Notes: generated by a model not told the origin, from the letters alone. A stretch of 64,000 bases of DNA from Myxococcota bacterium (GCA_039208735.1 JBCCQY010000012.1:30336-94335), one strand, 5' to 3'; counted from the first letter of the stretch, positions 36,677-59,979 are shown. Program-made: numbers and translations.

Positions 36677-37570
36677 TCACGCTGGAATTTCACCGCATAC
36701 CGTGCAGCGACGAGTGTTGGGCGAAAGCGACTGACTGGCCGCCTGACACCCGGGATGGAGCACCCGCCCACACCCGTACTGGCAGTCTTGTTTCTGATCG
36801 ACGGTGACGGGCAGCTGGCATACCGCACAGGCCCAGGTGCGCGCGGCCTTGGCGTCATGGGCCTGTTGGGGGGACAAATCGGGCAAAGACTCAACTGGCT
36901 CATGCCAGGCCATCCAGCCGATGAGCAAGCCGGAAAGGACCCCCGCGGCGGCGGCAAGAAAGCCCACGCCCCGGAACCCCCAGGTAAGGTCGGCGCCGAG
37001 ACTCCCCAACGCGGCGAGACCGGCGAGCGGAAGCCCGATGGCGGCTGCGAGGCCCAGCACGCGCCACGCGCTGCCGGGGGGACCCAGGACTCGGCGCGCC
37101 AGGCCTGTCGAAAGCAGGCCAATGCCCAATGCTCCCAGGCCTTGGGTAAGGGTGCTCCGCGACGCCGAAACCGCGATGCCGTCCGCGACCGCAAAGGCGA
37201 GCAAGCCTAAGGCGGAAAGGCCGATGCCTACTCCGTCGCGCCATTTCGGTCGTGAGGTGGATTCTCGATAGCGCGCGGGTCGCTCGACAATGCCCGAATT
37301 TCCTGGGGGTTCGGGTAGCAGATGCAGCAGCTCGTGGTCTACGATGCCGAGGCTTGCCAGCTTCTCGTCAGGCAGGAGGAGTCGTCCCCGTGCGCGCAAG
37401 TAGAAGGTGCGTCGCCGGCCGTCTGGCCAAAAGGCTTCAAGCCCCGCGTCGCGAGCCACCCGCGTGGTGAGGTCCCGAACCGTCAGGTAGGCGGGAATCG
37501 TCACCGAAAGCCGGAACGGCTCGGCGTCGATCACCTGCACATGGACGGGAATGCTGCGGGCGTCTGACAT
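36677..37570 (-). CDS. Ubiquitin-like (YukD/EsaB-type) domain + 4 TM + C4HC3 zinc finger protein
   Basis: N-terminal beta-grasp pattern (TVRDL...GRLL..DEKLASLGI...LHLLPE), four hydrophobic segments, C-x2-C-x11-C-x3-C-x4-H-x2-C-x13-C-x2-C. Confidence 0.7.
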   Translation of the reverse strand: MSDARSIPVHVQVIDAEPFRLSVTIPAYLTVRDLTTRVARDAGLEAFWPDGRRRTFYLRARGRLLLPDEKLASLGIVDHELLHLLPEPPGNSGIVERPARYRESTSRPKWRDGVGIGLSALGLLAFAVADGIAVSASRSTLTQGLGALGIGLLSTGLARRVLGPPGSAWRVLGLAAAIGLPLAGLAALGSLGADLTWGFRGVGFLAAAAGVLSGLLIGWMAWHEPVESLPDLSPQQAHDAKAARTWACAVCQLPVTVDQKQDCQYGCGRVLHPGCQAASQSLSPNTRRCTVCGEIPA

Positions 37571-37572
37571 CG

Positions 37573-38508
37573 TTAGCGCATCGCCTCGACGGTACGCTCC
37601 AACTCTTCGTTGATGCGCTGCAGCGGCTGAAGCAGGCGCTCAAACTGCAAGAACCACCGCAGCCAGGTGTCGTCGGACTGTTCGGGCCCAGGAATCTCGG
37701 CGTTCACCCTACGAAGGAACTCGGTGAACTGTCCGATGCGGTCGGTGGTCTGGGGAAGCGGATGGAAGAAATCGTGGCCGTAGCTGATCAATGTGCCTGC
37801 AGAGCGGTACAGCACACGGTCGGCGGTCCCCTCTTCGATGAGCATGAATTCGGCACTGATGAGTGCGCTCATGAAGGCAACCAGTCCGATGGACTGCTCT
37901 TGTAGGGTCGCGGTGCGGAAGAGGTTGTTGATGATCTGGCGAGACAGTCGGATGAACTCGACGATGCGAGGTTTGAGATAGGACTCGGCGGCGCGGATCT
38001 GACGTCCGGCGCGGGGGACGGGCAGCTGGACTTGCACAAGCCGACCCAGCCGGACCGTGAGTCGAGTCAGGGCGACCCCCTCTTCAGGTTCTTCGTTCGC
38101 CGGAAGCAGGCGCGGGGCCACGCTCTCCACGACACGGGACTCCTTTTCGTCGGCCGTGTCGTAGACATGGCGTTTGCTATCGGTGTCGGGCTGTTCCAGG
38201 TGAAACAGCCACAGGATGTATTCGCCGTCTTGTTTCGGAACCTCGAGCGGCACCACCACGTCCTGATGGAGGTGCACGCCTTGTCCGGTGCGGGCGATGC
38301 CGAAGCCCGACTTGACGACGGCGGTGTACTTCTTACGTCGCTGCTCGAGTTCGACCTGAAGACCCTGAACGATCCCGAAGCCATGCAGATAGAGGGCGTG
38401 CCGCTTCAGGGCGTGGCGATGGTAGGCCTGCTCGTCGGCCAGGTCCGTCGCGGTAATGGCGAGGCCCGGAAACGGGTTCAGGCGCTTGAGCTGGGAAGGC
38501 ACGGACAT
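37573..38508 (-). CDS. CIS baseplate-attached protein (fibre-anchor-like N-terminus, helical C-terminus)
   Basis: RLNPFPG...DLADEQAYH...HGFGIVQGLQV, a pattern seen at the start of CIS fibre/baseplate-attached proteins; lies after gpI. Confidence 0.6.
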   Translation of the reverse strand: MSVPSQLKRLNPFPGLAITATDLADEQAYHRHALKRHALYLHGFGIVQGLQVELEQRRKKYTAVVKSGFGIARTGQGVHLHQDVVVPLEVPKQDGEYILWLFHLEQPDTDSKRHVYDTADEKESRVVESVAPRLLPANEEPEEGVALTRLTVRLGRLVQVQLPVPRAGRQIRAAESYLKPRIVEFIRLSRQIINNLFRTATLQEQSIGLVAFMSALISAEFMLIEEGTADRVLYRSAGTLISYGHDFFHPLPQTTDRIGQFTEFLRRVNAEIPGPEQSDDTWLRWFLQFERLLQPLQRINEELERTVEAMR

Positions 38509-38525
38509 GGGGAATTCCTCGTCGC

Positions 38526-39629
38526 TCAGCCGCGAGCGTCGTCGAAGCGGATCACGAAGTGCACGTGGGTGGGGCGCTCGGCGCTTACCACGTTGATGAT
38601 GCGTCGAATGACCTGGCCTGCACGTTCGCCGAACCGCTCCCGGAAGCGCTCGAGTCGTTCGAGACGCAGGGTGAAGAAGGACGTTGGCTTGTAGCCATGG
38701 GGCTCGTACGCGTAAAAAGCGGGAGGTTCGGAACGTTCGTAGCGCTCGACCGGATCCGGGCCGCCGGCCAGTGTGGCTTTGCCCAGTACGAAGGGCTGGG
38801 GGGAGCGGCGCTCCTCAATGCGGGCGGGGGCCGAGGTGAGCACGCGAACCATCTCTTCGATGCCGGCGCGGGTCCCTCGCATGCGCATGAGTCGAATGGC
38901 CCGCCGCACGAGTTCACGTTGCTGGTGAACCGGCAGCGAAGCGTCGAGGTCGAAGCCCACCCAGCTCGCCAACCAAGGTAGAAACTTGGCTTCGATGGCC
39001 ATCGGGTCGGTGAGGTTTGGAATCGCATCGATCTCGTCGGTCACCGACGTCATCACATGCTGGAACATCAAGAGCATGCGTCGAACCGGCTCTTCGTCGA
39101 CCGCGAGTTCTTCGATGTGGTGCTCGTCAGGAAGCGCTCGAACCTGACGATTCGGAATCGTGGTGAGCTGCCGGGCCTGAACCGGGCCTTCCCCTTGGAA
39201 CAGTGAGGGCAGGAAGCGCAGGTAGCTGCGCACCGGCACGTGCAGGACCAGTTCGTCGTCGGAAAACAACATGCGGGTTTGGCCGATCGAGCCCAACGCC
39301 CGCGCCTTCACCTGCACGAGGTGGTCAGGAACGTAGTAGCTGGCTGCCTCACCGGTCTGAAGCAGCCGCTCGGACCGGACGAAGGACCGCTGACTCGAGT
39401 TTCGATGGATGATCTCGACTTCGCGGACCACACCCACCCGCTCTCCCCGCATGGCTTCGGTGAACCGCAAGCGAATGGGGTTCGCCATGTGGCGATGCAG
39501 GTAAGCGCGGGCTTCTCGAAAGGGAAAGCTCAACTGCACGACCTGCTCGAGGTAGAGCAAGTCCGTTGTGGGGCGGCGGAGAACCAACGCTTGGCGACCT
39601 CCGCGTGCAGGCATGCGACGACGCCTCAC
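38526..39629 (-). CDS. Phage tail protein I (P2 gpI/gp7-like) baseplate protein
   Basis: YLRFLPSLF, FLPWLASWVG, RGTRAGI, ERPTHV. Confidence 0.85.
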   Translation of the reverse strand: MRRRRMPARGGRQALVLRRPTTDLLYLEQVVQLSFPFREARAYLHRHMANPIRLRFTEAMRGERVGVVREVEIIHRNSSQRSFVRSERLLQTGEAASYYVPDHLVQVKARALGSIGQTRMLFSDDELVLHVPVRSYLRFLPSLFQGEGPVQARQLTTIPNRQVRALPDEHHIEELAVDEEPVRRMLLMFQHVMTSVTDEIDAIPNLTDPMAIEAKFLPWLASWVGFDLDASLPVHQQRELVRRAIRLMRMRGTRAGIEEMVRVLTSAPARIEERRSPQPFVLGKATLAGGPDPVERYERSEPPAFYAYEPHGYKPTSFFTLRLERLERFRERFGERAGQVIRRIINVVSAERPTHVHFVIRFDDARG

Positions 39630-43129: not shown

Positions 43130-43150
43130 GGAGTCGGGATCCCTGGTTGA

Positions 43151-43531
43151 TCAGCCGGTGATCAGAAGGTCGAGTTCTTGGAGTTGTTGGTTGCTCTTGA
43201 TTCGATAGGACACGGACACGCGCATCACGCCGCTCGAATCAGGCTCAGAGTCGATTTGTACGATGTCGATGCGAGGCTCCCAGCGCTCGAGTGCATCGCG
43301 GACGTGCCTCGCTACGAGCGTGCCGGTGACCGAGGTGTTGGGAGCAAACATCAGTTCGTGGATGCGACACCCGAATTCGGGCATGCGCTGGCGTTCACCG
43401 GGCTTGGTGCCGAGGATGACGGTGATCGACTCTTGGATGTTGCGTTCGTACGCCGAAAGACGGACGCCGCCGGAAGAGTTGTCGAACTGGAAGGGAAAGC
43501 CCCACCCACGCCCCAGGAACTCCTTGCTCAT
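43151..43531 (-). CDS. GPW/gp25 baseplate protein (Afp9-like)
   Basis: FLGRGWGFPF, TKPGER..PEFGC, WEPRI. Confidence 0.93.
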   Translation of the reverse strand: MSKEFLGRGWGFPFQFDNSSGGVRLSAYERNIQESITVILGTKPGERQRMPEFGCRIHELMFAPNTSVTGTLVARHVRDALERWEPRIDIVQIDSEPDSSGVMRVSVSYRIKSNQQLQELDLLITG

Positions 43532-44697: not shown

Positions 44698-44717
44698 GCG
44701 CGAACCTCTTCAATGAA

Positions 44718-45794
44718 TCAGAATGGCGGTTCGAAATCAGGGATGTCGTTGACCTCGCCCAAGGTCGGGACCGTCGGCGCATCGGGAGAACCGGGCAGCT
44801 TGCGGGCCAGGCTGTCGGCGGCATCTTGGACTTCACCCAGTTTCTGATTGACCCGCTTGATCGGCGCGTTGATGTCGTCGACCACCTTCTGCGCGACTTG
44901 ACGGGTCTCTTCGATCTCCTTGCGAACTTCGTCGGCCTTGGCGTTGACCTTGTCGACGGTGTCTTCGACGTCGGAGATGGCTTCCCGGACCGTGTCGATG
45001 GCGGCCAACACGTCGCCCTCGGTAATGCCCATCACGCTTTTGGGAGCAAGGTCTCGGAACTTCTGGCGAAGGTTCTCTGCCATTGCGCTCGTGTCGGGAA
45101 TGGTCAGGGAATCGAGCGAGAAATCGTCGAGCCCGAGTGGATCTTCGATGCCGTTGGCCAGCGCCATGTCTTGCTCCGACACCCCGTACTTGCTCGCCAT
45201 GGCACCCAGGCTGGAGCCGGGTGAAGGCGCAATCCGCTTGAGCATGGGCGGCAAGAGCGAAGATTGGCTACCGCTCTTCAGCTCGTCGTCGGTGCGGTCC
45301 GTGGTCATGGATACGGTGACGCGGGCGCGCAGCGGCACTCCCTTGGCGCTGAACATCAAGAACGTCGTGTTGATCGACTCGATCACCCCGGTGAAATCGA
45401 AGGGACCCCAAACGAATTGCACGCGATTGGGACGGCTTTCCGCGTCTTTGGATTTGGAGTCGCTGTCTTCGGCTTCGGGTTTCGACAATGCCAAGAACGA
45501 CCGCAACGGCCTTACGTACTGCTCGTTGACGTTGACCGGGTCGTCGTCCATGGAAGCTCCCCCCTTAGGAATGGTCGTGTCGAACACGAGTTCCATGGAG
45601 AGCTTGGCTCCGTCGCTTCCGTTGAAGTCCTTGCGGTCACCGGACTGCTCGCCTTGGTCGGGGGTGTAGTTCGCCCGATCGTCGAGCTTCAGCTCTTTGG
45701 GATTGAACTGGACGTGGAAGGTCGTGTCCGTCGTCTTCTGGTCGACGTTGATGAAGTGCGCCTTCTGGAGCGCGACCCCGTTGCTATTGGCCAT
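44718..45794 (-). CDS. CIS tube initiator with LysM-like segment and coiled-coil tail (Afp7-like)
   Basis: VQFNPKEL, ELVFDT, FVWG, F...GVPLRA.V, ANGIEDP. Confidence 0.85.
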   Translation of the reverse strand: MANSNGVALQKAHFINVDQKTTDTTFHVQFNPKELKLDDRANYTPDQGEQSGDRKDFNGSDGAKLSMELVFDTTIPKGGASMDDDPVNVNEQYVRPLRSFLALSKPEAEDSDSKSKDAESRPNRVQFVWGPFDFTGVIESINTTFLMFSAKGVPLRARVTVSMTTDRTDDELKSGSQSSLLPPMLKRIAPSPGSSLGAMASKYGVSEQDMALANGIEDPLGLDDFSLDSLTIPDTSAMAENLRQKFRDLAPKSVMGITEGDVLAAIDTVREAISDVEDTVDKVNAKADEVRKEIEETRQVAQKVVDDINAPIKRVNQKLGEVQDAADSLARKLPGSPDAPTVPTLGEVNDIPDFEPPF

Positions 45795-48453
45795 AGTGGT
45801 CCCCGGTCAAATAGCCATTGGCATCGCGACCCTGCAGCTCCGCTGCAACCTCGCGGAGAATGGAAGCAAAGGCGCGTTCCAGCTTGTGAGAGGGTTCGGA
45901 CTTTTGCGTTTCGCCCTGCTTGGGCGAATTGTCGGTCTCGAGTGCACTGTCTTGCATTCGAACGTGGGGTGCCGCCTCGGGGGCTCGTCGCGATTGTGCG
46001 GTGCGGAGCAGCTCCATTAGCTCATCGGCTACTCGCTTCGCCTGTTGGTGGGTCTTGGACCATCGCACCTGTTGCGGCCGATCGGTGGACGCGGGGGTTC
46101 CGTGGGGGGCGAGGGTTTGGGTTTCGACGTCGGCCTCGGCCGCGGTTCGAGTCGCCATGCGCCGAGCGGCATCGAGCAGCCGACGCATCGCTTGTTCACG
46201 AGCCTGCGGGAGTTCGGCGGCCGCGGCAAGAAGGGCACGCTCGCGGCGCAACAAGCTGTCGAGCAAGGCGGTGGTGTCGCGCAGGGGCACCCCTCGACCT
46301 GGGCGTTCCGCGCTCTGATCGACCGTCACCTCGTCGGGGGCCTCGAGTGCCTCGGTCGGACGCGGAGCCCGACGGCGAGATCGACGTCGGTGAGGGGGAG
46401 GCGCGTCGTCGGCCGGTGCGGTGCGCCGGGGCCGAGGCTCCTCTGGGGGGCGCAAGGCTTCCAGCTGCGGCGATCCAAGGGCGATTGGCGGGGTTTCCGA
46501 AGAGAGCGCTCGCCGAGGGCGAACCCCGAGCACTCTGGTTGCGGCTTCGATATCGAGCCGAGTGGCGGCCCGGAGGGTCGACCTCGGGGGAGGGGGCCCT
46601 GCAACCTCACGAAGCTCGATGATCTCGGGCTCGGAAAGAGGTTCGAATGACCGTGGGGCCGCCCGTCTCGTCTCAACCGGAGGCATCGGGCCACGACGAA
46701 CCTCTCGCACCACCCGCGCTTCGGCCTGAAGCACGGCTCCGAGGGCGGTCCGCAATCGCTGGGGCGTCGAGGTGGGGGAGGCCCGGCGTCGGGCGCGGCG
46801 GGCCACGCGAGTTCCAGGAGGGACCGAAGGGCGAGGGCGTCGGACCGTTGAAGATCCCGCGGATGCAGGCGGTGCGGTGGTGGCTTGCGGACGGTCTTGA
46901 ACCCCCGCTGGTGCTGCGGCCGGGGGGATGACCAGCGTAGGTTCGTCGAACGCTGCCACCGTGGCGTGGGGGCGCTGGCGCCGAGGCGGGGCACCGCTTG
47001 GCTCGGACGGGGCGTCAGGGTTCCGCGCCGCGGCATTCTCCACCGGCGTCGGGCGTTCGGCTTGCCGGACCGAGCGTGCTTCGTCGAGAGGTGCGTTCGG
47101 CGAAGCTGGGGTTGCTACAATCGTTTCGGGAGCAGCCGGAGATGCGACGCCGCGACGGGGGCGCGTTCGCGTGGGCGAAGGTGAAGGCGCGAGGGCGGCG
47201 ACCTTCGGGGCCTCGGTGGGTGCGGCCCGTTCGGCCACCCGGTCAAGGGGGCGGCGGCGCTGGGGCGACGCTACGTCAGGGGTCGCGGATGCGGGACGTT
47301 CGGAGGCCACGGGGGGGCTGGCTAACGGCGCAGTGCGAATCGGCCTGGTCGTCGGGGATGGTTCGTCGGCCACCGGACGCACCGCCAGTAGGACGGGTTC
47401 CACGGCAGGGAGAGCGGGCGCAACAGGACGCGCCCTGCGGGGCCACGGACGCGGGGGAGCCGCTGCGGAAGGCCTTGAACGAGGCGGCACCGTTGGCACG
47501 GGTGATGGGGTGCGTCGAGCCAGTCGACGCCGCACCGGACTGGGGGTCGCAGACGTGATGGTGATGCGCGGCTCGGCGCTTTCGATCTGCCGCGTTCGTC
47601 GAGCCATGGAGGTTCGGCGTCGCGGGGCCACCGCATCGGTTGAGCGAATGGCTTGCGATGCGGTCGCGAGAGGGGGCGGCGGAGCCGGAGTGAGCAGCGT
47701 GGGGCGCACCCGAGGGGAAGTCGAGGGGTTGGGGGGGCTCGCTCGTACGGGTGGGGGTGCAGTGGCGGCTTCGAGGCGCTCTTCGACGCGCGCCAGGGGG
47801 CGGACCTGGAACAGCGCGGTGGCGGCGAGCTGTTGGGCAAGTCCGCGCAATAGGGCGATCAGCCGTCGGATCTCCGCCGTTCGCTCCGCGGGCCCGAGGG
47901 CCGCGAGACCATCCATCGCGGCTTGCAACGCTCGCCGTTGATCGGAGGGAAGCCGACCGGCGACCTGGCGCCACAGACTCGTGAGCACGCTGGGCAAGGA
48001 GGCAGTGGGGCGTAGGGTAAGGGGCCGACGGCGCGGTTGGGCTCGAAGGAGGGCTTGCGTGGCCGGCGGAGCCTGCCCCTTGGAGACCGGCATGACGCCC
48101 AGCAGCTCATCGTGGAGCGTCGGAATGGGCGGGAGAGGCTCTTCGACCGGCGCGTCGTTCCACAGCCATGTGAGGCGCTCGAGAACGTCGGCGAAAGGTC
48201 GAACCCCAAACCCGACCGCCCCCACCGTGCGAAGTCGCTCTCCGGGCACCGGGCCTAATCGGTCGCGGGTGAGGCGACCGAGCAATCGCCCCCGAGGGCT
48301 AGCTGGGACGGGCTCGGCGAGTGGGTCCTCACCCAAATGCGCGGCATAGGGGTCGGGAAGCCCGAGTCGTTCAAACAGCCGCAAACCAGGGCGGGGTCCC
48401 CGTGGTGCCAGGAGACGTTGGGCGATCCGTTCCGATGGCCGCTGCCTGTCCAT
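45784..48453 (-). CDS. Pro/Arg/Ala-rich low-complexity protein, candidate tape measure
   Basis: 889-aa ORF fills the gap co-directionally, has a GGAG RBS and overlaps the next start; no recognisable domain. Confidence 0.55.
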   Translation of the reverse strand: MDRQRPSERIAQRLLAPRGPRPGLRLFERLGLPDPYAAHLGEDPLAEPVPASPRGRLLGRLTRDRLGPVPGERLRTVGAVGFGVRPFADVLERLTWLWNDAPVEEPLPPIPTLHDELLGVMPVSKGQAPPATQALLRAQPRRRPLTLRPTASLPSVLTSLWRQVAGRLPSDQRRALQAAMDGLAALGPAERTAEIRRLIALLRGLAQQLAATALFQVRPLARVEERLEAATAPPPVRASPPNPSTSPRVRPTLLTPAPPPPLATASQAIRSTDAVAPRRRTSMARRTRQIESAEPRITITSATPSPVRRRLARRTPSPVPTVPPRSRPSAAAPPRPWPRRARPVAPALPAVEPVLLAVRPVADEPSPTTRPIRTAPLASPPVASERPASATPDVASPQRRRPLDRVAERAAPTEAPKVAALAPSPSPTRTRPRRGVASPAAPETIVATPASPNAPLDEARSVRQAERPTPVENAAARNPDAPSEPSGAPPRRQRPHATVAAFDEPTLVIPPAAAPAGVQDRPQATTAPPASAGSSTVRRPRPSVPPGTRVARRARRRASPTSTPQRLRTALGAVLQAEARVVREVRRGPMPPVETRRAAPRSFEPLSEPEIIELREVAGPPPPRSTLRAATRLDIEAATRVLGVRPRRALSSETPPIALGSPQLEALRPPEEPRPRRTAPADDAPPPHRRRSRRRAPRPTEALEAPDEVTVDQSAERPGRGVPLRDTTALLDSLLRRERALLAAAAELPQAREQAMRRLLDAARRMATRTAAEADVETQTLAPHGTPASTDRPQQVRWSKTHQQAKRVADELMELLRTAQSRRAPEAAPHVRMQDSALETDNSPKQGETQKSEPSHKLERAFASILREVAAELQGRDANGYLTGDHYGQ

Positions 48454-49733: not shown

Positions 49734-49738
49734 CGCAG

Positions 49739-49912
49739 TCAGCCTCCGCGGGACTTGTTGATCTTGCCGTTGATTTCAGAGACCTCACGCACCCAGACGT
49801 GGCGCTCACGATGCGTCATGTCGAGCAAGGTCTCCTTCGACCAGTGAAAATGGTAGGCCAGGAACGCTACCTCCTTGAACACCCGTTCGAGGGGGTAGCT
49901 TACGATTCCCCC
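49739..49912 (-). CDS. DUF6760-like ORF, probable -1 frameshift extension of the tail chaperone
   Basis: EVAFLAYHFHW...HRERHVWVREVSEIN; in the -1 frame, overlapping the upstream stop, with no ATG before the conserved region. Confidence 0.75.
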   Translation of the reverse strand, partial: GGIVSYPLERVFKEVAFLAYHFHWSKETLLDMTHRERHVWVREVSEINGKINKSRGG

Positions 49913-50265
49913 AGGCGGCCGAACTCCCGTTCGAAGTGAGCGCCGCATTCAGGGCATGTGACGGTCAATACCGCCTCGTCCTCGTTGATACGGTTGTACA
50001 TCTCTTCGAGGAAGCGCAAATCGCCAGCGTACAGGCCTTCGATGACCTGTGAACTCACCTCGGAGAGTGTCCCGAGGCGTGTGATCACACGGCTCAAGAG
50101 CACGATGATGAGGTATGCGCGATTTCGCTGGACCCGAAGGTCGTTCAAGGGCGCAATTTCGTCCTTGGCCGTCGCGAGGCGCATGACGCCTTGGCGGTGG
50201 ACGTTGCCGTCCGCGTCGACGTAGCCGCGCGGCAGGGTGAACTCATACTCGGTCTTGAATTCCAT
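49900..50265 (-). CDS. Tail assembly chaperone-like CIS protein
   Basis: EFTLPRGYVD...GVMRLATAKDEI...DLRFL..Y.RIN, CPEC; directly after the tube gene. Confidence 0.85.
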   Translation of the reverse strand: MEFKTEYEFTLPRGYVDADGNVHRQGVMRLATAKDEIAPLNDLRVQRNRAYLIIVLLSRVITRLGTLSEVSSQVIEGLYAGDLRFLEEMYNRINEDEAVLTVTCPECGAHFEREFGRLGES

Positions 50266-50284
50266 CGGGCTCTTTCACACCAAA

Positions 50285-50308: not shown

Positions 50309-50317
50309 GGGGAGGCA

Positions 50318-50770
50318 TCAGACGTCGGCGCGTTCGACGCGTTCGACGGCGAGTTCGACCTTCTCGATTGCAATCGCCGAAGACTCGGAGTCCTGCTCCG
50401 GAACGGTCCACTTGCAAGGCCAAGCTTCGAAGAAGTTGTACTGCGCGACGATCGTGGTGAGGTCCTGGTCGAGCACGGTGACCGTACCCGAGCGGCGATC
50501 GATCACGCCGTCCTCGATGTTCTTCCGCCACTTCCAGAGATCGGGCGTGGAGGTGAAGCCACGCTCAAGCACGATGTTGGCGTAGGTCGTACGACCCGGC
50601 TTCTTGCGGACAACGTTGTCGTTGCCCTGCTTGAATTCGATGATTTCGGTCTCAGATTCCATCCCCGAGACCTTCTTGAAGCCCCCAAGCAGGGTCTTCG
50701 CGTCGGACGTGATGCCGCCGACCTCGAGGAGGAAGTTGTAGGAACCGAGAAATTCGTCAGTACCAGCCAT
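50318..50770 (-). CDS. Tail tube protein (T4 gp19-like, Afp1/5)
   Basis: YNFLLEV, GFKKVSG, KKPGRT.Y.NI.LERG, WPCKW. Confidence 0.95.
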   Translation of the reverse strand: MAGTDEFLGSYNFLLEVGGITSDAKTLLGGFKKVSGMESETEIIEFKQGNDNVVRKKPGRTTYANIVLERGFTSTPDLWKWRKNIEDGVIDRRSGTVTVLDQDLTTIVAQYNFFEAWPCKWTVPEQDSESSAIAIEKVELAVERVERADV

Positions 50771-50831
50771 GTTTCTTCTCTCGGACAAGGATGGAGGTCT
50801 CGGGCGATGGCTACCGTGAAACCTTCGAAAC

Positions 50832-50866
50832 CGTCCAACTCAACAGATGGCCATCTGGGTTGGACG
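50832..50866. other. Long inverted repeat between the sheath and tube genes
   Basis: cgtccaac...gttggacg arms around the perfect palindrome cagatggccatctg. Confidence 0.6.
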
Positions 50867-50880
50867 CGGCGCCAACATAC

Positions 50881-52665: not shown

Positions 52666-52670
52666 GTTCG

Positions 52671-53531
52671 CTAGTCCTCGCTGTCGCTGTCGGGGTCTTC
52701 GGATTCAAGGGGGCGATGGTCGTGGCCGGGGGGCCCGACGTTGTGAGGTCGAGACGACCGTGGCGCGGCCGGCTGCGACCGCATGCGCCCATTGGGGCTG
52801 ACCTCGTCTGCACGCGACGGTGCAGGCGTGAGGTCGTTTGCACGTTGGCCCCGCACGACCGCTCCAGGGCCCGAGATCATCGAACCGCGGAGCAGACACG
52901 TGGCGCGGTAGGTCACGAAAGGCCGAAACGGCGCTTCGTGGATGGTGAAGAAGTTGATTGCATCACCGATGGTGAGGTCGTCGACGAGCGCGAGCGAAAC
53001 GCGCTCCATCTTCACCTCTTCGGGGGCCGCGTCGGCGCTCCACTCTCGGCCCAGCGAATCAACGATCTTTCCGGATGGAAGCATGTATTGCTGGGGGCGG
53101 TAGAGCAGGTGGGTGGCGTCGTTCAGGCGAAGCATGACCCAGCCCAATAGCCGCTCTGCCTCACTCCGGAACTTCGCGTGGACCGCCACCGTGTAGTAGA
53201 GGAAGAGGTGCACGGGCGGCCGCTCAAAGAGCATGTCCTTGTCGTTGACCACCTTGTCGGACAGCTCAAGAGTTGATTGGGTCCACCGCTTGGCGTTCTT
53301 CATCGCGTCGTTGCGCGCTACCCGGTACATGTAGGTGTAGATCACCTTCTCCCGGTCTTTTGGGACGAAGGAGAGGTCTTCCTCGATGCGGGGTCGCGGG
53401 CCATCCGCGAGATCCCAACCGGTCAGCATCCAGGAGTGGAGGGCCTCGGTGACGTCACCGATGACCGCTTGGCCCTGGTAGGCCCCCCGTGCAAACCCCG
53501 GAGGCAGCTGCGAATGCATCGATTCGCTCAA
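52671..53531 (-). CDS. Pvc16/Afp16 (DUF4255)-like cap/terminator protein
   Basis: VIGDVTEAL, YMYRV.RN, PPVHLFLYY, LLGWVM..L.D; TTG start with GGAGG RBS; precedes the sheath. Confidence 0.75.
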   Translation of the reverse strand: MSESMHSQLPPGFARGAYQGQAVIGDVTEALHSWMLTGWDLADGPRPRIEEDLSFVPKDREKVIYTYMYRVARNDAMKNAKRWTQSTLELSDKVVNDKDMLFERPPVHLFLYYTVAVHAKFRSEAERLLGWVMLRLNDATHLLYRPQQYMLPSGKIVDSLGREWSADAAPEEVKMERVSLALVDDLTIGDAINFFTIHEAPFRPFVTYRATCLLRGSMISGPGAVVRGQRANDLTPAPSRADEVSPNGRMRSQPAAPRSSRPHNVGPPGHDHRPLESEDPDSDSED

Positions 53532-53773
53532 CGCGTCCTCCGTTGTGGTCGACCCGGTCGGCGTTCGACCGGTCCGGGCGTGAGTTCGAATGGGGTCGTT
53601 ACGAGTCGAATCAGCAATGGAGCCGGTTCACCCAGCCGGATCGGCCTGAGTTCGCGAATGGTGTGTTCACGCTGGTCGCCTTGCCCGCGTGACCAAACTT
53701 GAGTCACAAACGGGGGCTCTGGTCGAAGCGCGACCAGCCGCTTTGCCAAACTGCGCGCCATCCGCGAATCCAC
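53528..53773 (-). CDS. Possible small hypothetical protein at the head of the CIS operon
   Basis: Stop overlaps the cap gene TTG; no recognisable motif. Confidence 0.3.
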   Translation of the reverse strand: MDSRMARSLAKRLVALRPEPPFVTQVWSRGQGDQREHTIRELRPIRLGEPAPLLIRLVTTPFELTPGPVERRPGRPQRRTR

Positions 53774-53958
53774 TCCCGACGCAGGCGAGGCATCGTTATG
53801 CAGTGCGGGCGACCGGTCAAGCGACCGGAGCGGAAATCTGGGCGTCGAGGACCGACAATGAGGGTTCTCCGGGCGCTTCGATCCCTTTCATCAGTGTCAC
53901 GTGGTCTCGATGGCCCGGCACCTCGCGATCCTTCCGCAAACCCTTTATATGGGCCGCC

Positions 53959-54633
53959 ATGCAGGACCGAGGCGCGAAGTCGGGGGGCCGTCGACGACCC
54001 AGGTCGTCCCAGAACAGTGACACGGCTCGCACCCAGCTCCAAGCCCTTGCCGACCAGCTTGGCAATGATGCGATGGCGCAGCGGATCGCTCGCGGTCGGG
54101 CCACCCAAGACGACATTTTGGCTTTCGTGACGGCCCGCTTGCAGCGGGTCAGCGAGATCCAACAACGGGAAATCGCGCTGACGGTGAAGGACGGAGCCCA
54201 CTGGAAGGCGTGGCGGGCCATGGGTGATGCGGGCCTTCCCCAGACCAAGGAAGGGCATCCCACACGGTGGCGCAAGGTGGCCGAGGCCTACGAAGAGGCC
54301 CTTCGTGCTGCCACTCGGGGTGACCTGTCGCGCGCCAAACGCTTGGTCCAAGATGCGCGGGGGATCGAAGAACACGTGTTGGCCGAGACCACCGACCTCG
54401 TGCGAACCGACGACCTCGAGGATGGCGCTTCGCCCGACCCCGCTTGGCTGGCCGATGCCGTACTTTCAGCCACCCAACCCTGCGATGTTCCCTTCGAGGC
54501 GCATGAACTCGTGCGGCGAATCGTCAATGTCACGGCCGAGATGCCCAAGATGCGCGGCAAGCCCAAGCTGACCCTACCGTGGTGGGCCGAAGAGGAAGAC
54601 GAGGAAGATGAGGAGCATGAAGAGGATGGGTGA
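53959..54633 (+). CDS. Hypothetical helical protein with acidic tail
   Basis: Divergent from the CIS operon; ends WWAEEEDEEDEEHEEDG; overlaps the argE start. Confidence 0.6.
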   Translation: MQDRGAKSGGRRRPRSSQNSDTARTQLQALADQLGNDAMAQRIARGRATQDDILAFVTARLQRVSEIQQREIALTVKDGAHWKAWRAMGDAGLPQTKEGHPTRWRKVAEAYEEALRAATRGDLSRAKRLVQDARGIEEHVLAETTDLVRTDDLEDGASPDPAWLADAVLSATQPCDVPFEAHELVRRIVNVTAEMPKMRGKPKLTLPWWAEEEDEEDEEHEEDG

Positions 54634-55780
54634 CCTGCCCCGGACGCTGACCGCCGACCTGGCTCGGTTGATTGGCTACAACACGGTGTCGAACCGTCCG
54701 AACGAAGCGCTCGCCGCAGATTTGGCACAACGTGCTGAGGATTTGGGGATGCGCGTGGAGTCGTTCATCGATCCGGATGAACCTGGCAAGCGCTCGGTGA
54801 TCGCCTGGGCCGGCCCCACGCCAAGCGACCAGGACCGAGGCCTGACCATCACCGGTCATCTCGACGTGGTGCCTACCGAGGGGCAGCCCTGGTCGTCGGA
54901 CCCGTTCGTGCTGCGAGAGGACAACGGGCTGCTCTACGGACGAGGAACCGCCGATATGAAGGGCTTCGTCGCGGTGACGATGCGAGCCCTCGCCGACCTC
55001 GATCTCCGCAAGCTGACCGCCCCGTTGGTGTTGGTGTGGACCCACGATGAAGAGGTCGGTTGCTTCGGCTCTGCGAAGCTGGTCGCTGAATTCGCCGAAC
55101 AAGCACGTGTGCTGCCTCGAGCGTGTCTCGTGGGAGAACCGACGGGTTTCGAGATGCTTCGGATGCACCCCGGCCACGTTGCGGGCCGCATCGTCGTGCA
55201 TGGGCAAGCCGCGCACTCCTCACGACCGGACCTAGGCAAAAATGCCATTGAGGGGGCCGCGGAGGTGATTGGCGTGGTCCGTGCACTGGCCGCCACGCTG
55301 AAGGCGGAACCCGCCGACCTACCCGAGATGGAACGACCGTGGGTGGCGGTCAACGTGGCCACGATTACCGGAGGCAGCGCCATCAACATCGTTCCCGACC
55401 GGTGTGTGGTCGAGATCGGGTACCGCCCCCTCCCAGGCACCGAGCCGGACGCCGTCTGGCACCGTCTCGAAGCGGCGTTGGCGGCGCTCCCGCACCTCGA
55501 TTTGACCACGGAACTGGTCCGCGTCACTCCGTCGATGCTCACCCGCTCTGATGCGGAACTGATCGGGGAACTCCTGCCCTTCGCGGCGAGTGGGCACTGC
55601 GGCGCCGCGGGGTTTGCCACCGACGGCGCGAACCTCGCGAAGCTCGGCTGTGCGCCCATCGTGTTTGGTCCGGGTTCGATCGACGTTGCCCATCAGGCTG
55701 ACGAATACGTCCCGTTGGCGGACCTCGTGCGGGGAGTCGACATCGTGAAGACGCTCATCCGGCGGCGGTGCGGTAGCTAG
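54626..55780 (+). CDS. argE: Acetylornithine deacetylase (M20 family)
   Basis: GHLDVVP, GRGTADMKG, DEEVG, GEPT, AHQADE. Confidence 0.88.
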   Translation: MGDLPRTLTADLARLIGYNTVSNRPNEALAADLAQRAEDLGMRVESFIDPDEPGKRSVIAWAGPTPSDQDRGLTITGHLDVVPTEGQPWSSDPFVLREDNGLLYGRGTADMKGFVAVTMRALADLDLRKLTAPLVLVWTHDEEVGCFGSAKLVAEFAEQARVLPRACLVGEPTGFEMLRMHPGHVAGRIVVHGQAAHSSRPDLGKNAIEGAAEVIGVVRALAATLKAEPADLPEMERPWVAVNVATITGGSAINIVPDRCVVEIGYRPLPGTEPDAVWHRLEAALAALPHLDLTTELVRVTPSMLTRSDAELIGELLPFAASGHCGAAGFATDGANLAKLGCAPIVFGPGSIDVAHQADEYVPLADLVRGVDIVKTLIRRRCGS

Positions 55781-57110
55781 TTGCGAAGGCCTGGAGGGCC
55801 GCTTCGACCACGGCCTCCCGCCGAACGTGTCGGCCTTCCGCCACGATACGGGTTCCCCCCACCCAGACGCTGTCCACCCAGCGTGGGGAGGCCTGTCCAA
55901 TGATGGCCTCGAGCGGAGGGACGCCGAGCGCGGAAAGGTCGGTCAAATCGATGGCCACAAGATCGGCAGGGTCGCCTGGAGTTACCCCCAACTCGCGCGG
56001 GAGCCCGAGCGCGCGCGCGCCTTCCGCACTTGCGGCGACAAGGGCGCGCCAGGCGAGGCGACCATCGCCGCCGGCTTGCGGTTGTCCAAGGATCCCCCGT
56101 TGACCCGATTGAGCACGACCATGACCTTCGAGGGTGCGCGCTTCGGCGAACAGATCGATCGTCGCGTGACTGTCGGACCCCAAACAGAGTGGCAAACGGC
56201 GACGCGCGTCGACGGGAAGAAAGCCATCGGCAAGGTCGAGTTCGGTCGAAGGACAAACACAGACCCGAGCCCGGGCGGCGACGAGGCAATCCACATCGCC
56301 CGGTTCGGGCCAGGTGAGGTGAACGGCCGTGAACCGGTCATGCACCAGGCCACAGTCCGCCAGCAGCTGGGTGGGGGAGCATTGAGATTGCGCGTGGCAA
56401 AACGCGTTCTCCGCGGGTTGCTCAGACACATGCGTGTGGATCACCCCGTCAAACGACGCGAGTGTCCGGAGGCTTGATGGCGGGACGGCCCGCACGGAGT
56501 GGGGAGCAAGACCGATAATGACATCCTCGTCTGTCCCGTAGACCCTTCGCAGTCGCTCCGTGGCGGCCAGCACGGGGGCGCCACCGGTGTCGATGAACCG
56601 CCGTTGCACGGGATGTAACGGTTGATCTCCGTTTCGTTCGTAGGCCACGCGCAACAAGGTGATTCGAATTCCGGCCCGTCGCGCGGCGGCGATCACACGA
56701 TGGGCGAGTTCGTCAGGGTCTGCGTAGGGCGAGCCGTCGGGCTGGTGGTGCACGTAGTGAAATTCGCCAACGTGCGTAATGCCCGACTCCGCCATTTCGG
56801 TGAACGCGAGCGCGCTGATCGCTTCGATTGCGTTTGGATCGAGGCCGCCGACAAGGGCGTACATCCGGTCGCGCCAATGCCAGAAATCGGTCGCCGAACC
56901 ATCGGGAAGTTGGCCTCGTAACGCCCTTTGAAACGCGTGGCTGTGCGCATTGACAAGGCCAGGGATGAGGACCCGTCCCGGAAGCGGAACGTCGATAGGC
57001 CCCGGCGGAAATTTGGTCACCGAAGTCACAAGGCCATTGTCGACCACAACGACGTGATCACGAACAAAGCCGGATGCTGTAAGGACGGCGTCAGGGGCCA
57101 GGGTCGGCAT
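55755..57110 (-). CDS. hutF: Formimidoylglutamate deiminase
   Basis: NAHSHAFQR, EFHYVHH, APHSVRAV, HVSEQ, CPSTE.DLADG, GSDSH. Confidence 0.92.
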   Translation of the reverse strand: MPTLAPDAVLTASGFVRDHVVVVDNGLVTSVTKFPPGPIDVPLPGRVLIPGLVNAHSHAFQRALRGQLPDGSATDFWHWRDRMYALVGGLDPNAIEAISALAFTEMAESGITHVGEFHYVHHQPDGSPYADPDELAHRVIAAARRAGIRITLLRVAYERNGDQPLHPVQRRFIDTGGAPVLAATERLRRVYGTDEDVIIGLAPHSVRAVPPSSLRTLASFDGVIHTHVSEQPAENAFCHAQSQCSPTQLLADCGLVHDRFTAVHLTWPEPGDVDCLVAARARVCVCPSTELDLADGFLPVDARRRLPLCLGSDSHATIDLFAEARTLEGHGRAQSGQRGILGQPQAGGDGRLAWRALVAASAEGARALGLPRELGVTPGDPADLVAIDLTDLSALGVPPLEAIIGQASPRWVDSVWVGGTRIVAEGRHVRREAVVEAALQAFATSYRTAAG

Positions 57111-57142
57111 GGGAAAGTCCTGCGTGCTACCTGGGGGCGGGA

Positions 57143-57823
57143 GTGAGCGTGGCGCGACCATCATCGACGATCGATCGCCTGTTTGCGAGGCTCGAGGCCG
57201 CCGCAGACGGACGCCCAGGCGACCCTGGATTTGTCCGCCGGCATGTCACCGGAATGGGCAAGGTCGTCACGGGTGAAGGGGTCCAGACGCTTGTGGATCG
57301 GGTTGGCGCCAGGGCATTTACCACGGACCGGGGCACGATCGCGATTCCCGAACTTCGAGCCAATGACCCCGAGAACGTCGCCCTTCTCTTCCACGAGTTC
57401 TTCCACCAGCGCGACGGTCATGCGCACGGCGGTGAGGCCGAGGAGCGCAAAGCCCAAGCGCAAGAGGCGATGGTCTACCACCTTGCCCATGACGAAGGGG
57501 TGACCGACATCGGCGCCATCTTGTCCCGGCTCGAAGGAGAACGCGACGCTTGGCTCGAGAGCGCTCACGACCAGCCTGGAGGGGTCGTGCAGGGCGTTCG
57601 TGCGTCGCCGAAGGGCCAAGAAGTGCGGAAGGCCGACGCGAAGCCGGAGCCGGCAACGAAGGCCCCTGGCAAACTTCGGGGTCCCGATGCAATGAAAGCC
57701 CTGCTCGATGCCGGGTACAGTCGGCATGGCATCGTGCGTGAACTCGTGACCCGCTGGCGCCGGATGTCGAAGGAAGAGCGCCGTTTGTGGGCGTACCGAT
57801 TTGCCGGACGGACCGCCACGTGA
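57143..57823 (+). CDS. DUF4157 (eCIS core)-like HExxH protein
   Basis: VGARAFTT...ALLFHEFFHQ...EERKA; stop overlaps the ATPase start. Confidence 0.65.
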   Translation: MSVARPSSTIDRLFARLEAAADGRPGDPGFVRRHVTGMGKVVTGEGVQTLVDRVGARAFTTDRGTIAIPELRANDPENVALLFHEFFHQRDGHAHGGEAEERKAQAQEAMVYHLAHDEGVTDIGAILSRLEGERDAWLESAHDQPGGVVQGVRASPKGQEVRKADAKPEPATKAPGKLRGPDAMKALLDAGYSRHGIVRELVTRWRRMSKEERRLWAYRFAGRTAT

Positions 57824-59979
57824 CCGACGGAAGTGGTGATGGCCCGACGCAGCCCCCACCGGAAGGCTCGGGAGGGCCCTCGGCGAGCCCCTTCCAAGAT
57901 CTCGCCCGACGCCTGCGGCGAACCGACTTGCTGCTGCTTCGTGCGGTGCGCCGGCAGCGCGCACGCCCCGCGGTGCGAGCCAAAGGACAGTTTTGGGGCA
58001 CCGTCATCACCGACGATGAGGTCGATGAACTGCTTCGGGCGCACGGAGAGGTCGACTACCCCGTCGGGGTCGATGGACTCGAAGACGCGATGGCGGCCTC
58101 GACCGGCTACCGCGATGCCCCCGGCCACCGATTTGGCGCGTTGCGAGCCACCTTTGATCTCGATGGCGATGAGGCCGATCTAGTTCTGTTGTCGGTCGCT
58201 CCGGAGATTAGCACTGGCTACGCCAAGATCTTTGCCTACCTCAACGACAACCTGAATCAGGCTTTTCTCACGGTCGATCTCGCGACGCGCATTCTTCGCC
58301 AGCGTCGTCGCGAACGCCTCGCCCTGCAATCGCGGCTCCTCCCGGGGGCCCGCCTCGTACGGCATCGACTGCTGCTTCTCAACCCGCCCGACGGCATGGA
58401 CACCCACGCCTCGCGGCGCGTCCATCCCTCGCCGCAGCTGCTGCAATGGCTGTTCGGTCAGCAACCGGTAGGGCTCGAAGCCGGAGCGACGCGAATCGAT
58501 GTGTCCCGGGAGCCGTTTGTGCCTGGCTCGACGATCGAACGGCTGGTGCACATCGATGAAGCGCTGAAGGGACCGGTCACCGTGGCCATTGTCGGTGGCA
58601 CCTCGGGCATGCGCGAAGGGGTCGCCATGGCGGTGGCCCGCCAGGCGAAGCGCCCCCTGGTCCGCGTCGATCTTGAACGATGCAAACGCTACCTGCAGCA
58701 TCCGTTCGATCTGACACGCGATCTGATGCTCGAAGGTGCGTTGCCCTACCTCGTCAACGTTCCGGATACGACCGACGAGCCCGCCCTGCGCATGCAAATG
58801 ATGGGGGTCGGAACCGCACTGGCCGCATTGCCGTTCCCGGTCTGTGTCGGGGGCAATGACCGACGGGCCGTGGCCATGATGCTCGGTGTAGACCGCCCCG
58901 GACTCACCGTGCCAGTCGGTCGCTCGACGTCCGACGAACGCACGCGGGCTTGGGTGACAGCGATGACCCGTCGCGGTTGGCCGAACGTAGAGGTGTCCGC
59001 CGACGATGTGGCGGAACGGTTCTATTCGATTGGGGGCACCACCATCGAACGGGTGCTCGACCGAGCGACCGCAGAGGCTGGAGGGCATCCTCCTGACCTC
59101 GAAACCCTTTGGTCGGCCGCGCGAGAGGCCGCGCGACCCGAACTTAGCGGGCTCGCGCAACGCATCGTGCCCCGGTACCGTTGGGAAGATCTCGTACTTC
59201 CCGACAAGATCATGGCCCAGCTTCGCCATCTGGAGCGGTACCTTGCCGAGCAAGAGACGGTCATGCAGCGGTGGGGCGCCCAGGCGGTGCGTCCCCGTGG
59301 CTATGGGCTCAAAGTCCTGTTCTCAGGCGCGCCGGGAACCGGCAAGACGATGTGTGCCGAGGTCATTGCCGGCGCCTTGGGTCTCGATCTCTTCAAGGTC
59401 GACCTCTCGGCCGTCATCAGCCGTTGGGTTGGGGAGACCGAAAAGAACCTCCGAGAGATCTTCGACGCGGCCGAGGGCGGTAGTTCGGTCGTGCTGTTCG
59501 ACGAGGCGGACGCGTTGTTTGGTGCGCGAGGCGATGTGAAGCAAGCCCAAGATCGCTTCGCCAACCAAGAAGTCAGCTTCTTGCTGCAGCGTCTCGAGGT
59601 GTTCGAGGGCTGTGCGGTGCTCACCACCAACCTACAAGAGAACATTGACCCTGCGTTTTTGCGGCGCTTTGGAGCGGTGGTGGAGTTTCCGCTGCCCTCG
59701 GTGGCGGAGCGTCTTCGGTTGTGGGAGCGGGCCGTGCCCGCGAACGCTCCCCGGAGCCCCGACCTCGATCTGGCCTATCTTGCGCAGCAGTTCTCGTTGG
59801 CGGGTGGTTCCATCGTGAACGCGGCCATTCACGGGTGCATCACGGCGAGTGCAGAGCGTGTTCCCCTAGGCATGCGCCACATCGTCGAGGCGGTGGCTCG
59901 CGAGTTGCACAAGAACGGCAAGCAGGTGAACCGCGTGCACTTTGGCGACTTCTACGACGACATCGCCCACCTGTTTTGA
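57820..59979 (+). CDS. CIS AAA+ ATPase (Afp15/Pvc15-like)
   Basis: APE...Y..IFAYLND N-domain, GAPGTGKT, VGETEKNL, FDEADALFG, DRFANQEV, AFLRR; first AAA module degenerate. Confidence 0.9.
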   Translation: MTDGSGDGPTQPPPEGSGGPSASPFQDLARRLRRTDLLLLRAVRRQRARPAVRAKGQFWGTVITDDEVDELLRAHGEVDYPVGVDGLEDAMAASTGYRDAPGHRFGALRATFDLDGDEADLVLLSVAPEISTGYAKIFAYLNDNLNQAFLTVDLATRILRQRRRERLALQSRLLPGARLVRHRLLLLNPPDGMDTHASRRVHPSPQLLQWLFGQQPVGLEAGATRIDVSREPFVPGSTIERLVHIDEALKGPVTVAIVGGTSGMREGVAMAVARQAKRPLVRVDLERCKRYLQHPFDLTRDLMLEGALPYLVNVPDTTDEPALRMQMMGVGTALAALPFPVCVGGNDRRAVAMMLGVDRPGLTVPVGRSTSDERTRAWVTAMTRRGWPNVEVSADDVAERFYSIGGTTIERVLDRATAEAGGHPPDLETLWSAAREAARPELSGLAQRIVPRYRWEDLVLPDKIMAQLRHLERYLAEQETVMQRWGAQAVRPRGYGLKVLFSGAPGTGKTMCAEVIAGALGLDLFKVDLSAVISRWVGETEKNLREIFDAAEGGSSVVLFDEADALFGARGDVKQAQDRFANQEVSFLLQRLEVFEGCAVLTTNLQENIDPAFLRRFGAVVEFPLPSVAERLRLWERAVPANAPRSPDLDLAYLAQQFSLAGGSIVNAAIHGCITASAERVPLGMRHIVEAVARELHKNGKQVNRVHFGDFYDDIAHLF

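Follow-up and report, generated by a model that had tools for sequence, protein, structure and literature searches.

A split-gene contractile injection system of uncultured Myxococcota with a satellite spike gene and a predicted TssK-like protein in the fibre slot

The DNA analysed here (the window, 64,000 nt in full, G000:C12:30336-94335) belongs to the genome of a Myxococcota bacterium, G000, which is assembled in 288 contigs (9.4 Mb, 64% GC, 92.7% complete, 6.15% contaminated), and carries a gene cluster for a contractile injection system (CIS). By a Pfam scan of 28 open reading frames (ORFs) between positions 31994 and 63416, we assigned a Pvc16_N cap, two sheaths, one gp19 tube, an initiator combining CIS_tube and LysM, a Phage_GPD hub, gp25, one Baseplate_J, Tail_P2_I and an AAA ATPase (Table 1). 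The 14 core genes form a single minus-strand run with intergenic gaps of -49 to 110 bp, which therefore leaves no space for an overlooked spike. No gp5 oligonucleotide/oligosaccharide-binding (OB) fold, PAAR, second tube, holin, endolysin or toxin family was detected among the 28 ORFs, and a six-frame search of the window with a spike and a PAAR profile found nothing; as a positive control, the same spike profile detects the linked spikes of two loci of the sister order.

A first-pass annotation, made from the sequence alone, had already listed most of these genes and absences, and both lists hold; its chaperone was confirmed through PHROGs and its DUF4157-like protein through orthologues (the 189-aa protein has no eCIS_core match of its own, and four of four scanned orthologues match PF13699 above the cut-off). 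It had overlooked DUF6760, an 889-aa ORF and a 297-aa protein with ubiquitin-like (Ubl), membrane and zinc-finger parts. The fibre position, where it had recognised no repeat-rich fibre, is filled by a 311-aa ORF with a predicted baseplate-anchor fold of the TssK/eBAP type and no receptor-binding head. Compared with the extracellular CIS (eCIS) core of Chen 2019, Afp1/5 (tube), Afp2/3/4 (sheath), Afp7, Afp9, Afp11, Afp15 and Afp16 are present in one cluster, and Afp8 (gp27 plus gp5) is divided, with its gp27 half in the cluster and its gp5 half on another contig.

Table 1 Genes of the CIS cluster and flanking genes in the window.
Feature	Position	Strand	Basis
297-aa membrane protein (YukD Ubl at the N-terminus, four predicted membrane helices, RING-like C4HC3 zinc finger at the C-terminus)	36677..37570	-	AF2, Foldseek, family Pfam matches
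311-aa protein, fibre slot; predicted TssK-like shoulder and neck, headless	37573..38508	-	AF2, Foldseek
Tail_P2_I wedge protein (gpI-like)	38526..39614	-	PF09684 E 1.5e-14
Baseplate J, single copy, 1167 aa	39626..43129	-	PF04865
gp25 sheath initiator	43151..43531	-	PF04965 E 1.8e-24
gp27-like hub without gp5 half, 389 aa	43528..44697	-	PF05954; no PF04717
Tube initiator (CIS_tube and LysM), helical C-terminal extension	44718..45794	-	PF19266 E 2e-26
889-aa Pro/Ala/Arg-rich protein, tape-measure position	45784..48453	-	no Pfam or PHROG match
Second sheath, 392 aa	48555..49733	-	Pfam
DUF6760, -1 frame of chaperone	49739..49948	-	PF20546
Tail assembly chaperone	49900..50265	-	PHROG 508 E 1e-5; ~82% identical to relatives
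Main tube (gp19-like, tube 1)	50318..50770	-	PF06841 E 2e-34; tube-1 clade 100/93
Main sheath, 594 aa	50881..52665	-	Pfam; nearest solved sheaths 8bky, 9ezm, 8bl4
Cap/terminator (Pvc16_N)	52671..53519	-	PF14065
224-aa conserved protein, divergent from operon; candidate cargo or accessory factor	53959..54633	+	conservation beside cluster
189-aa eCIS_core (DUF4157)-like protein	57254..57823	+	orthologue matches to PF13699
Afp15-like AAA+ ATPase	57787..59979	+	Pfam AAA and WHD; 62-72% identical in relatives

To follow this cluster across its order we used 61 genomes, G000 and 60 relatives from seven families (f1-f7); families f8 and f9 represent the sister order. Titled relatives are mostly labelled as metagenome-assembled genomes (MAGs) of Myxococcota, Myxococcales or Deltaproteobacteria. 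A sheath orthologue is present in 52 of the 61 genomes, with main sheath identities of 63-79% in 50 relatives and 49% in one. G000 shares 75% identity with members of its family in the sheath, 61% in Baseplate J and 70% in the 311-aa protein, all reading frames of the cluster are intact, and the spike-less layout is common to all 23 main-locus stretches of the order that were fetched. A marker search with the 311-aa protein in 301 genomes gave matches in 38 of 43 others of the order and distant forms in seven genomes of the same class and four others; by this marker the system is nearly confined to the order. A hub-based metagenome scan found no relative.

The missing spike is very probably encoded elsewhere, by a solitary gene at a conserved satellite position, and this separation is old. 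A genome-wide profile search found three gp5 OB genes in G000, two within its other CIS clusters and one orphan of 264 aa (G000:C128:4265-5059), which among solved structures comes closest to the gp5 halves of VgrG-like proteins from CIS. Sheath and spike occur together in 50 of the 61 genomes, the sheath only in two (71% and 90% complete), the spike only in one (74% complete) and neither in eight; these counts are no statistical test, because the genomes are related and mostly fragmented, and the total of 51 spikes excludes G005, whose matches are short pieces of 632-aa frames (52 before this exclusion). No spike was found in any of the 23 main-locus stretches, all of which span the hub-gp25 junction, and in the single-contig genome G013 spike and sheath lie 3.12 Mb apart. 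Within family f1 the spike neighbours are thyX/DUF6864 and a helix-turn-helix (HTH) gene, and the G000 orphan keeps this thyX-spike-HTH context. In families f2-f7 the spike is usually a tandem pair, one paralogue sometimes with long low-complexity tails. Such tails, consisting of Ala/Glu/Lys helical repeats or Gly/Ser tracts, were seen on some hubs and second spikes (L122:1-3300; L066:222-2255; L052:5973-8150). In the sister order, where this type of CIS also occurs, a pair of spike genes immediately precedes the sheath in seven of seven f8 genomes examined (G132, G067, G326, G337, G293, G231, G090; the G231 contig breaks off within the sheath, leaving a fragment), and the f9 genome G084 has a single spike ~29 kb from the nearer cluster end.

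The G000 spike falls into the spike clade of the order and its f1 sub-clade (FastTree support 99 and 98) on a long branch, and six other spikes of this subtype are known, with 46-52% identity. Compared with family members, the similarity deficit of G000 is 16 points for the hub and 21 points for the spike, versus 1-10 points for ten other genes. We also analysed rate covariation as the residual correlation of terminal branches for 28 gene pairs in 16 genomes, normalised against the sheaths and the cap, with the HTH neighbour of the spike as control gene; an earlier normalisation, mostly by wedge genes, could inflate the spike-hub value, hence this repeat. Without correction for the 28 comparisons, spike and hub gave the top value (r 0.85), and r 0.62 when G000 was left out, then tied for top with the pair of Baseplate J and the membrane protein. 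The spike and its own HTH neighbour reached only -0.14 to 0.22, and the hub and this control -0.01 to 0.48.

Other assignments of the orphan spike were examined. A type VI secretion system (T6SS) as its user was rejected, as neither TssB (PF05591) nor TssL (PF09850) was found in the 92.7% complete G000, with controls matching in E. coli. The other two CIS clusters of G000 each have their own spike and were likewise rejected; G003, G006 and G012 possess other CIS and lack both this one and this spike. That the spike is concealed in a different reading frame or among the unassigned ORFs was rejected from the six-frame search and the predicted folds of the two distal ORFs. The orphan is thus very probably the cognate tip of the cluster, supplied in trans, and judged from the sequences the 389-aa gp27-like hub is its likely partner.

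There is one tip per machine and no arsenal. The 99% complete G030 has one gp5 OB gene in total, and in G013, G023, G021 and G046 the satellite spike, or pair of spikes, is accompanied by one more spike, located a few kb from the sheath of another CIS. Next to the satellite spikes are thyX, DUF6864, an HTH protein and a dioxygenase, and no toxin or immunity gene was found to be conserved there. Hence, the first-pass suggestion of tips supplied in trans was supported by the genome-wide searches for gp5 and gp19 orphans, including the second tube described below, and its further idea of interchangeable warheads found no support, because each system has one spike gene or a fixed pair without an adjacent toxin.

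A modular weapon that draws interchangeable tips and cargo from dispersed loci, like the orphan vgrG islands of T6SS, is accordingly very unlikely. The dispersal of spike, PAAR and tube genes would fit it, as would the two spike paralogues of f2-f7, the additional tube-2 paralogues with added domains in f1 and three dispersed eCIS_core proteins in G000. These last could, however, serve the two other CIS clusters of G000, the satellite neighbourhoods hold no toxin-immunity pairs, and the evolution of the spike tracks a single hub.

As for the tip beyond the spike, PAAR homologues occur in 39 of the 61 genomes, in G042, G049, G039, G041 and G056 within two genes of the spike, and the genome-wide search for a PAAR orphan found no PAAR-motif gene in G000. 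An orphan DUF4280 (PAAR-like) gene (G000:C54:26377-26742; L109:10377-10742), with no CIS gene nearby, was considered as the tip and is possible but unsupported, the family occurring in eight of the 61 genomes and in none of four same-genus genomes.

The tube shows a similar displacement. G000 has four gp19 genes, namely two in its other CIS clusters, tube 1 of the window and an orphan of 309 aa with five acidic DxDxDG-like repeats (G000:C159:7095-8024). A tube 2 follows sheath 2 within the locus in 20 of 22 other loci of the order and is absent there from G000, G016 and G025; G016, G025 and G002 have a plain tube 2 at a thioesterase/thioredoxin site shared with the G000 orphan. The orphan belongs to the tube-2 clade (98/96, with the bootstrap not fully settled), and in G023, G021, G007 and G019 tube 1 was relocated instead. 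The second tube is therefore probably also supplied in trans. All ten extended tube-2 paralogues scanned from family f1, in ten genomes, are gp19-OmpA fusions (L089:4629-5567, L090-L093, L096-L100; dispersed genes), where the G000 tube 2 bears the acidic repeat tail instead. G023 has a tandem pair of tube-1 genes encoding identical proteins far from the cluster (L101:5646-6798), and f8 clusters have four tube genes and no tape-measure-like gene (L069:5536-7123; L072:13221-14725).

In the tape-measure slot, 11 relatives encode proteins of 632-1802 aa with conserved ends, which the 889-aa ORF of G000 matches by eye only; the slot is not occupied in f8 and holds ~210 aa in G038 and G044. The 889-aa protein is a candidate ruler and luminal cargo. 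Tape-measure-like cargo has been described in actinobacterial CIS (PMC13277306; here and below, literature statements refer to the available part of each cited text). Upstream in the operon, the chaperone gene ends with an invariant GGGGGAA before the stop codon (window 49900-49915, minus strand), with DUF6760 in the -1 frame, in all 16 loci that covered the site, out of 17 submitted. From this arrangement, DUF6760 is likely a programmed -1 frameshift extension of the chaperone. The gpG/gpGT-type frameshift is the phage parallel. A supposed paralogous initiator on contig C43 was rejected because it matched a lytic transglycosylase through LysM only. No RNA holder was listed for the sheath-tube region, and no upstream motif shared by the spike, tube and cap promoters was found using a sigma-54 pattern, 7-mers and 8-mers.

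The 311-aa protein in the fibre slot has 400 homologues; among the 120 listed, identity is 67-89% and nearly every member has 310-312 aa. Its AlphaFold2 (AF2) model (pLDDT 79.8, pTM 0.48) retrieved TssK by Foldseek (5mwn/6n38, E 2e-6, TM 0.45), followed by the baseplate entry 7b5h of the thylakoid CIS (tCIS) and IglD; in a wide structure search, TssK reached Z 9.1 with 232 residues aligned at a root mean square deviation (rmsd) of 6.3. We saw no head or adhesin domain in the model, and the tCIS crown protein All3314 is a weak sequence match (E 0.25). The gene directly follows Tail_P2_I and has a predicted TssK-like fold, which fits the eBAP3 class, for which both properties are described (PMC12923769). 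A TssK-like role of this protein is likely.

Next to it, at the distal end of the operon, lies the gene of the 297-aa membrane protein, present in 51 of the 61 genomes and absent from eight of the nine without a sheath. In its AF2 model (pLDDT 87.5), ESX complex chains ranked on top by Foldseek and the ubiquitin-like fold reached Z ~11, Ubl folds dominating the structure search. At E<=0.05, 113 of 120 family members match YukD and 94 match zf-RING_2; the latter matches are weak (best E 1.2e-4, none for the window copy), with eight zinc ligands invariant. Its rates correlate with those of the 311-aa protein (r 0.50, or 0.60 without G000, uncorrected). We consider it a candidate membrane adaptor.

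In the sister order, four genes come after the orthologue of the 311-aa gene: a ThiF-type activating enzyme (E1), a membrane protein whose zinc finger is related, a YukD-type Ubl standing alone, and a conjugating enzyme (E2; UQ_con) with an HPN...C motif. This run from E1 to E2 is directly adjacent in six of nine loci (G132, G067, G293, G326, G337, G084) and follows an insertion in G231; in G137 the contig ends within it, and in G090 it is not adjacent. Examples at the distal operon end of f8 and f9 are L071:512-3654, L141:3393-6536, L143:3431-6644, L074:623-3683 and L080:1666-4677. An E2 query matched 14 of 15 f8 and two of two f9 genomes, and none of 122 genomes of the window's order nor G000, where ThiF gave generic matches only. 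The f8 Ubls have a C-terminal Ala rather than Gly, and the f8 zinc finger is partly degenerate. From its gene content, the E1-E2-RING-Ubl set of f8 and f9 is a putative conjugation module. Because E1 and E2 are lost in the window's order and present in the sister order, the 297-aa protein looks like a leftover Ubl/RING fusion, and the adaptor appears to descend from a module still complete in the sister order. The Ubl of EccD in the type VII secretion system (T7SS) acts as a scaffold. By analogy, the 297-aa protein is probably a scaffold too; its Ubl is fused N-terminally and therefore has no free C-terminus for conjugation.

Several further genes flank the core. The DUF4157-like gene adjoins the cluster in 12 genomes and the 224-aa gene in 15, the 224-aa protein having a short N-terminal motif in common with a 650-aa protein family next to other loci. 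Between cap and ATPase lie an M20 peptidase and an amidohydrolase (window 54626-57110), kept in 15 and eight genomes, which may be passengers or accessory enzymes. Directly after the ATPase follows a 426-aa protein with an actin/Hsp70-like N-terminal motif (window 59984-61264), which has two paralogues elsewhere and does not keep its place next to the cluster in relatives. A kinase-like protein with a weak C-terminal Ubl match, an SLT-domain protein, a 240-aa protein and a Ser/Thr kinase adjoin the cluster in up to nine genomes (L027:3144-9497); G000 has the homologues on other contigs (G000:C60:17838-21815).

Elsewhere G000 carries CIS of a different type, in two clusters that each have a hub and a spike (G000:C55:1-23863, C63:23103-44450, C208:24-1616, C276). 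Their Baseplate J genes come in pairs, and they also encode DUF6519 proteins and large eCIS_core proteins, of which one contains a HINT domain. Further eCIS_core proteins, three in number and dispersed, one of them containing GIY-YIG, were identified together with an orphan ATPase resembling Afp15 (L110:5499-10367; L111:7620-10262; L111:17906-19360; L112:4058-6181), as were prophage structural genes with a Baseplate J on G000:C104 (L018:147-12360), unrelated to this system.

Taken together, we somewhat favour an intact, order-wide split-gene CIS with trans-supplied spike and tube 2, whose particle would be tied to the inner membrane of its producer instead of being released. Tethering itself has about an even chance and is favoured because the cluster has no lysis gene and no receptor-binding head, and also because a conserved membrane protein is present and the nearest solved relatives of the sheath are cell-retained. 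The first-pass annotation had named a non-released, membrane-tethered subtype as its alternative to tips in trans; both can hold together, and its idea of tethering is plausible. In this machine the spike trimer would dock on the gp27-like hub, initiator and tube 2 would start the tube, and tube 1 would polymerise around the 889-aa tape-measure-like protein, aided by the frameshifted chaperone pair, before sheaths and cap complete the particle. The wedge would consist of two Baseplate J and one gpI, as in the Streptomyces CIS, with headless TssK-like trimers binding gpI where fibres normally sit. Because it lacks a receptor-binding head, the 311-aa protein may couple the baseplate to the Ubl/four-helix/RING-like membrane protein, as TssK couples the T6SS baseplate to the membrane complex. 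Control of firing would lie within the producing cell. Spike and tube would be ejected through the envelope together with the luminal cargo, consisting of tape-measure-like and DUF4157 proteins, and the most plausible recipient is prey in contact with the cell; given tethering, prey is a moderately better candidate target than self.

The trans spike is far more secure than the tethering, and a number of observations weigh against one or the other. For the anchor, no outer-membrane or periplasmic channel component was identified, and the 297-aa protein is missing in G016 and G029 despite their sheath. The similarity to TssK is moderate (TM 0.45, rmsd 6-10 A, 13-16% identity), unrelated helical bundles reached Z 9-10.6 in the wide search, over the C-terminal half only, and TssK-like eBAP3 domains, minimal ones included, also occur in systems regarded as extracellular (PMC12923769). 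For the tip, no PAAR was found in five genomes of the G000 genus (G000 and four others), the G000 spike does not group with same-genus spikes, and the G000 branches of spike, hub and initiator measure 1.47, 1.79 and 1.31 versus 0.32 for Baseplate J. Besides the missing correction, the hub correlates with the HTH control when G000 is left out (r 0.48, p 0.095), and therefore part of the rate signal may be lineage-wide. Finally, as G000 is fragmented and contaminated, the orphan contigs could be mis-binned, though their neighbours match those of relatives.

A conventional released eCIS with a split locus is a rather doubtful alternative to the tethered particle. The spike would still act in trans, the particle would exit by lysis, the 311-aa protein would be a minimal fibre or a socket for adhesins encoded separately, and the membrane protein would act in regulation or release. 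The cap, the tape-measure-like gene, the ATPase and the DUF4157 protein indeed belong to the features of eCIS, an SLT-domain gene lies near the cluster in nine genomes, and both split loci, reported for 13 genomes in a study treating Afp8 as core (PMC6899500), and fibres downstream of Tail_P2_I reduced to 'minimal attachment-only modules' in the eBAP3 class (PMC12923769) have precedents. Yet the near-invariant length and high identity of the 311-aa protein are unlike a target-binding fibre, neither a holin nor an endolysin family was found in the cluster, and the nearest solved sheaths come from cell-retained systems.

Unlikely, too, is a cytoplasmic, self-directed CIS as in Streptomyces, which would dock briefly on the membrane protein under stress and act on the membrane or development of its producer. 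It shares with our system the wedge gene set, the lack of a conventional fibre, the distal membrane protein gene and the top sheath similarity; the vertical, near-universal retention across seven families looks housekeeping or developmental, and no trans-envelope channel was found. PAAR tips, however, are kept in 39 of the 61 genomes, often beside the spike, and the fusions of tube 2 to the OmpA-family peptidoglycan-binding domain in ten relatives suggest contact with a cell wall. That the cluster is a decaying copy with lost tip genes, as the first-pass annotation had allowed, is scarcely credible, since the same cluster occurs in 52 of 61 genomes with intact frames in G000, the same spike-less layout in all 23 loci, the family-level identities given above and six other spikes of the G000 subtype, and this outweighs the absence of in-locus tube 2 and PAAR from G000, its shorter tape-measure-like ORF and its fast-evolving hub, spike and initiator.

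Returning to the membrane-tied, split-gene machine, a bolder version is possible yet questionable, namely a new membrane-anchored CIS subtype, fixed across an order of uncultured predatory Myxococcota, in which the baseplate is docked, through a headless TssK-like trimer, on a membrane protein assembled from components of the ubiquitin system, and the intact E1-E2-RING-Ubl cascade in the operon of the sister order modifies machine or cargo and so controls assembly or firing. If true, ubiquitin-like conjugation would here regulate secretion machinery instead of serving as a weapon against phages, and the system would be a living intermediate between free eCIS and T6SS. The lineage also shows that entire groups of CIS will be missed or misjudged by screens that demand an Afp8 in the cluster or base their trees on it. 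The headless TssK-like adaptor next to its dedicated membrane protein is of interest for the origin of T6SS-type anchoring from free particles, and the E1/E2/RING/Ubl set in a CIS operon gives a direct route to a non-defence function of bacterial ubiquitin-like systems. Prey killing by uncultured Myxococcota is largely unknown, a CIS tube gene being reported as top transcript in some (PMC11937823), and this lineage offers a defined, vertically inherited machine with testable parts.

In the literature found, covered as full text with subscription journals mostly outside, there was no CIS with an order-wide satellite spike, no tube-OmpA fusion and no operonic E1/E2/RING/Ubl set in a CIS. The system is an intact variant of the CIS family whose architecture is apparently undescribed there. 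Its sheath is closest to those of the Streptomyces CIS (8bky, E 4e-75; 8bl4) and the haloarchaeal CIS (9ezm, E 5.6e-74), in a range of 4e-75 to 3e-72, with PVC, tCIS, Afp and AlgoCIS at E 1e-46 or weaker. Both nearest systems are cell-retained, with a membrane protein of their own lineage needed or proposed (PMC12237407, PMC11566945). With the Streptomyces type IId CIS (CIS-Sc, CisA; PMC12237407) our system has in common the top sheath similarity, one Baseplate J and one gpI-type gene, the lack of a conventional fibre and a membrane protein gene at the distal baseplate end. There, in contrast, the fused VgrG-like Cis8 is encoded in the cluster, and here hub and spike are separate and unlinked, a TssK-like protein fills the fibre slot, there are two sheaths and the host is diderm; the Ubl and RING-like domains set the membrane protein apart from CisA by prediction. 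The membrane-bound Halogeometricum CIS with a T6SS mode (PMC11566945) likewise has an eCIS-type cluster, the second-best sheath and a conserved lineage-specific membrane protein as proposed anchor. It differs by its two cis11 genes and by its anchor candidate, which has six helices and is encoded upstream of the cluster.

In eCIS of the eBAP3/Tail_P2_I type (PMC12923769), the fibre-slot gene also directly follows Tail_P2_I, with a TssK-like shoulder and a single Baseplate J. Unlike there, no close homologue of the 311-aa protein here has a receptor-binding module, and the published phylogeny uses the in-locus Afp8 (VgrG), which is absent from the loci of this lineage. The eCIS-like clusters of Myxococcota, mostly UBA796, from seamount metatranscriptomes (PMC11937823) resemble ours in the uncultured hosts and the combination of gp19 and sheath. 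In two of those MAGs gp19 was the most expressed gene, and one MAG has two gp19 genes three ORFs apart, like tube 1 and tube 2 in the relatives here. The available text treats them as ordinary eCIS and makes no mention of a missing spike or of TssK-like or Ubl/RING proteins.

The canonical T6SS shares with our system a TssK-like fold beside a TssG-like gpI, spike and tube genes outside the main cluster and, in relatives, C-terminal domains added to tubes. The head of TssK binds the T6SS membrane complex, and this head is absent from the 311-aa protein. In contrast to T6SS, the tubes are of the gp19 type, the sheaths are single chains, and a cap and a tape-measure-like gene are present; in contrast to orphan vgrG/hcp islands, the spike is single-copy and has no linked effectors. 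Like EccD/YukD of T7SS, the 297-aa protein combines a Ubl with membrane helices. The sister order, finally, parallels the Bil/Bub operons, its E1, its E2 with HPN...C and its Ubl standing in a single run with a RING-like gene; Bil/Bub operons stand by themselves, the available text describing neither a RING nor a connection to a CIS for them, and one system of this type modifies phage tail fibres (PMC11601603).

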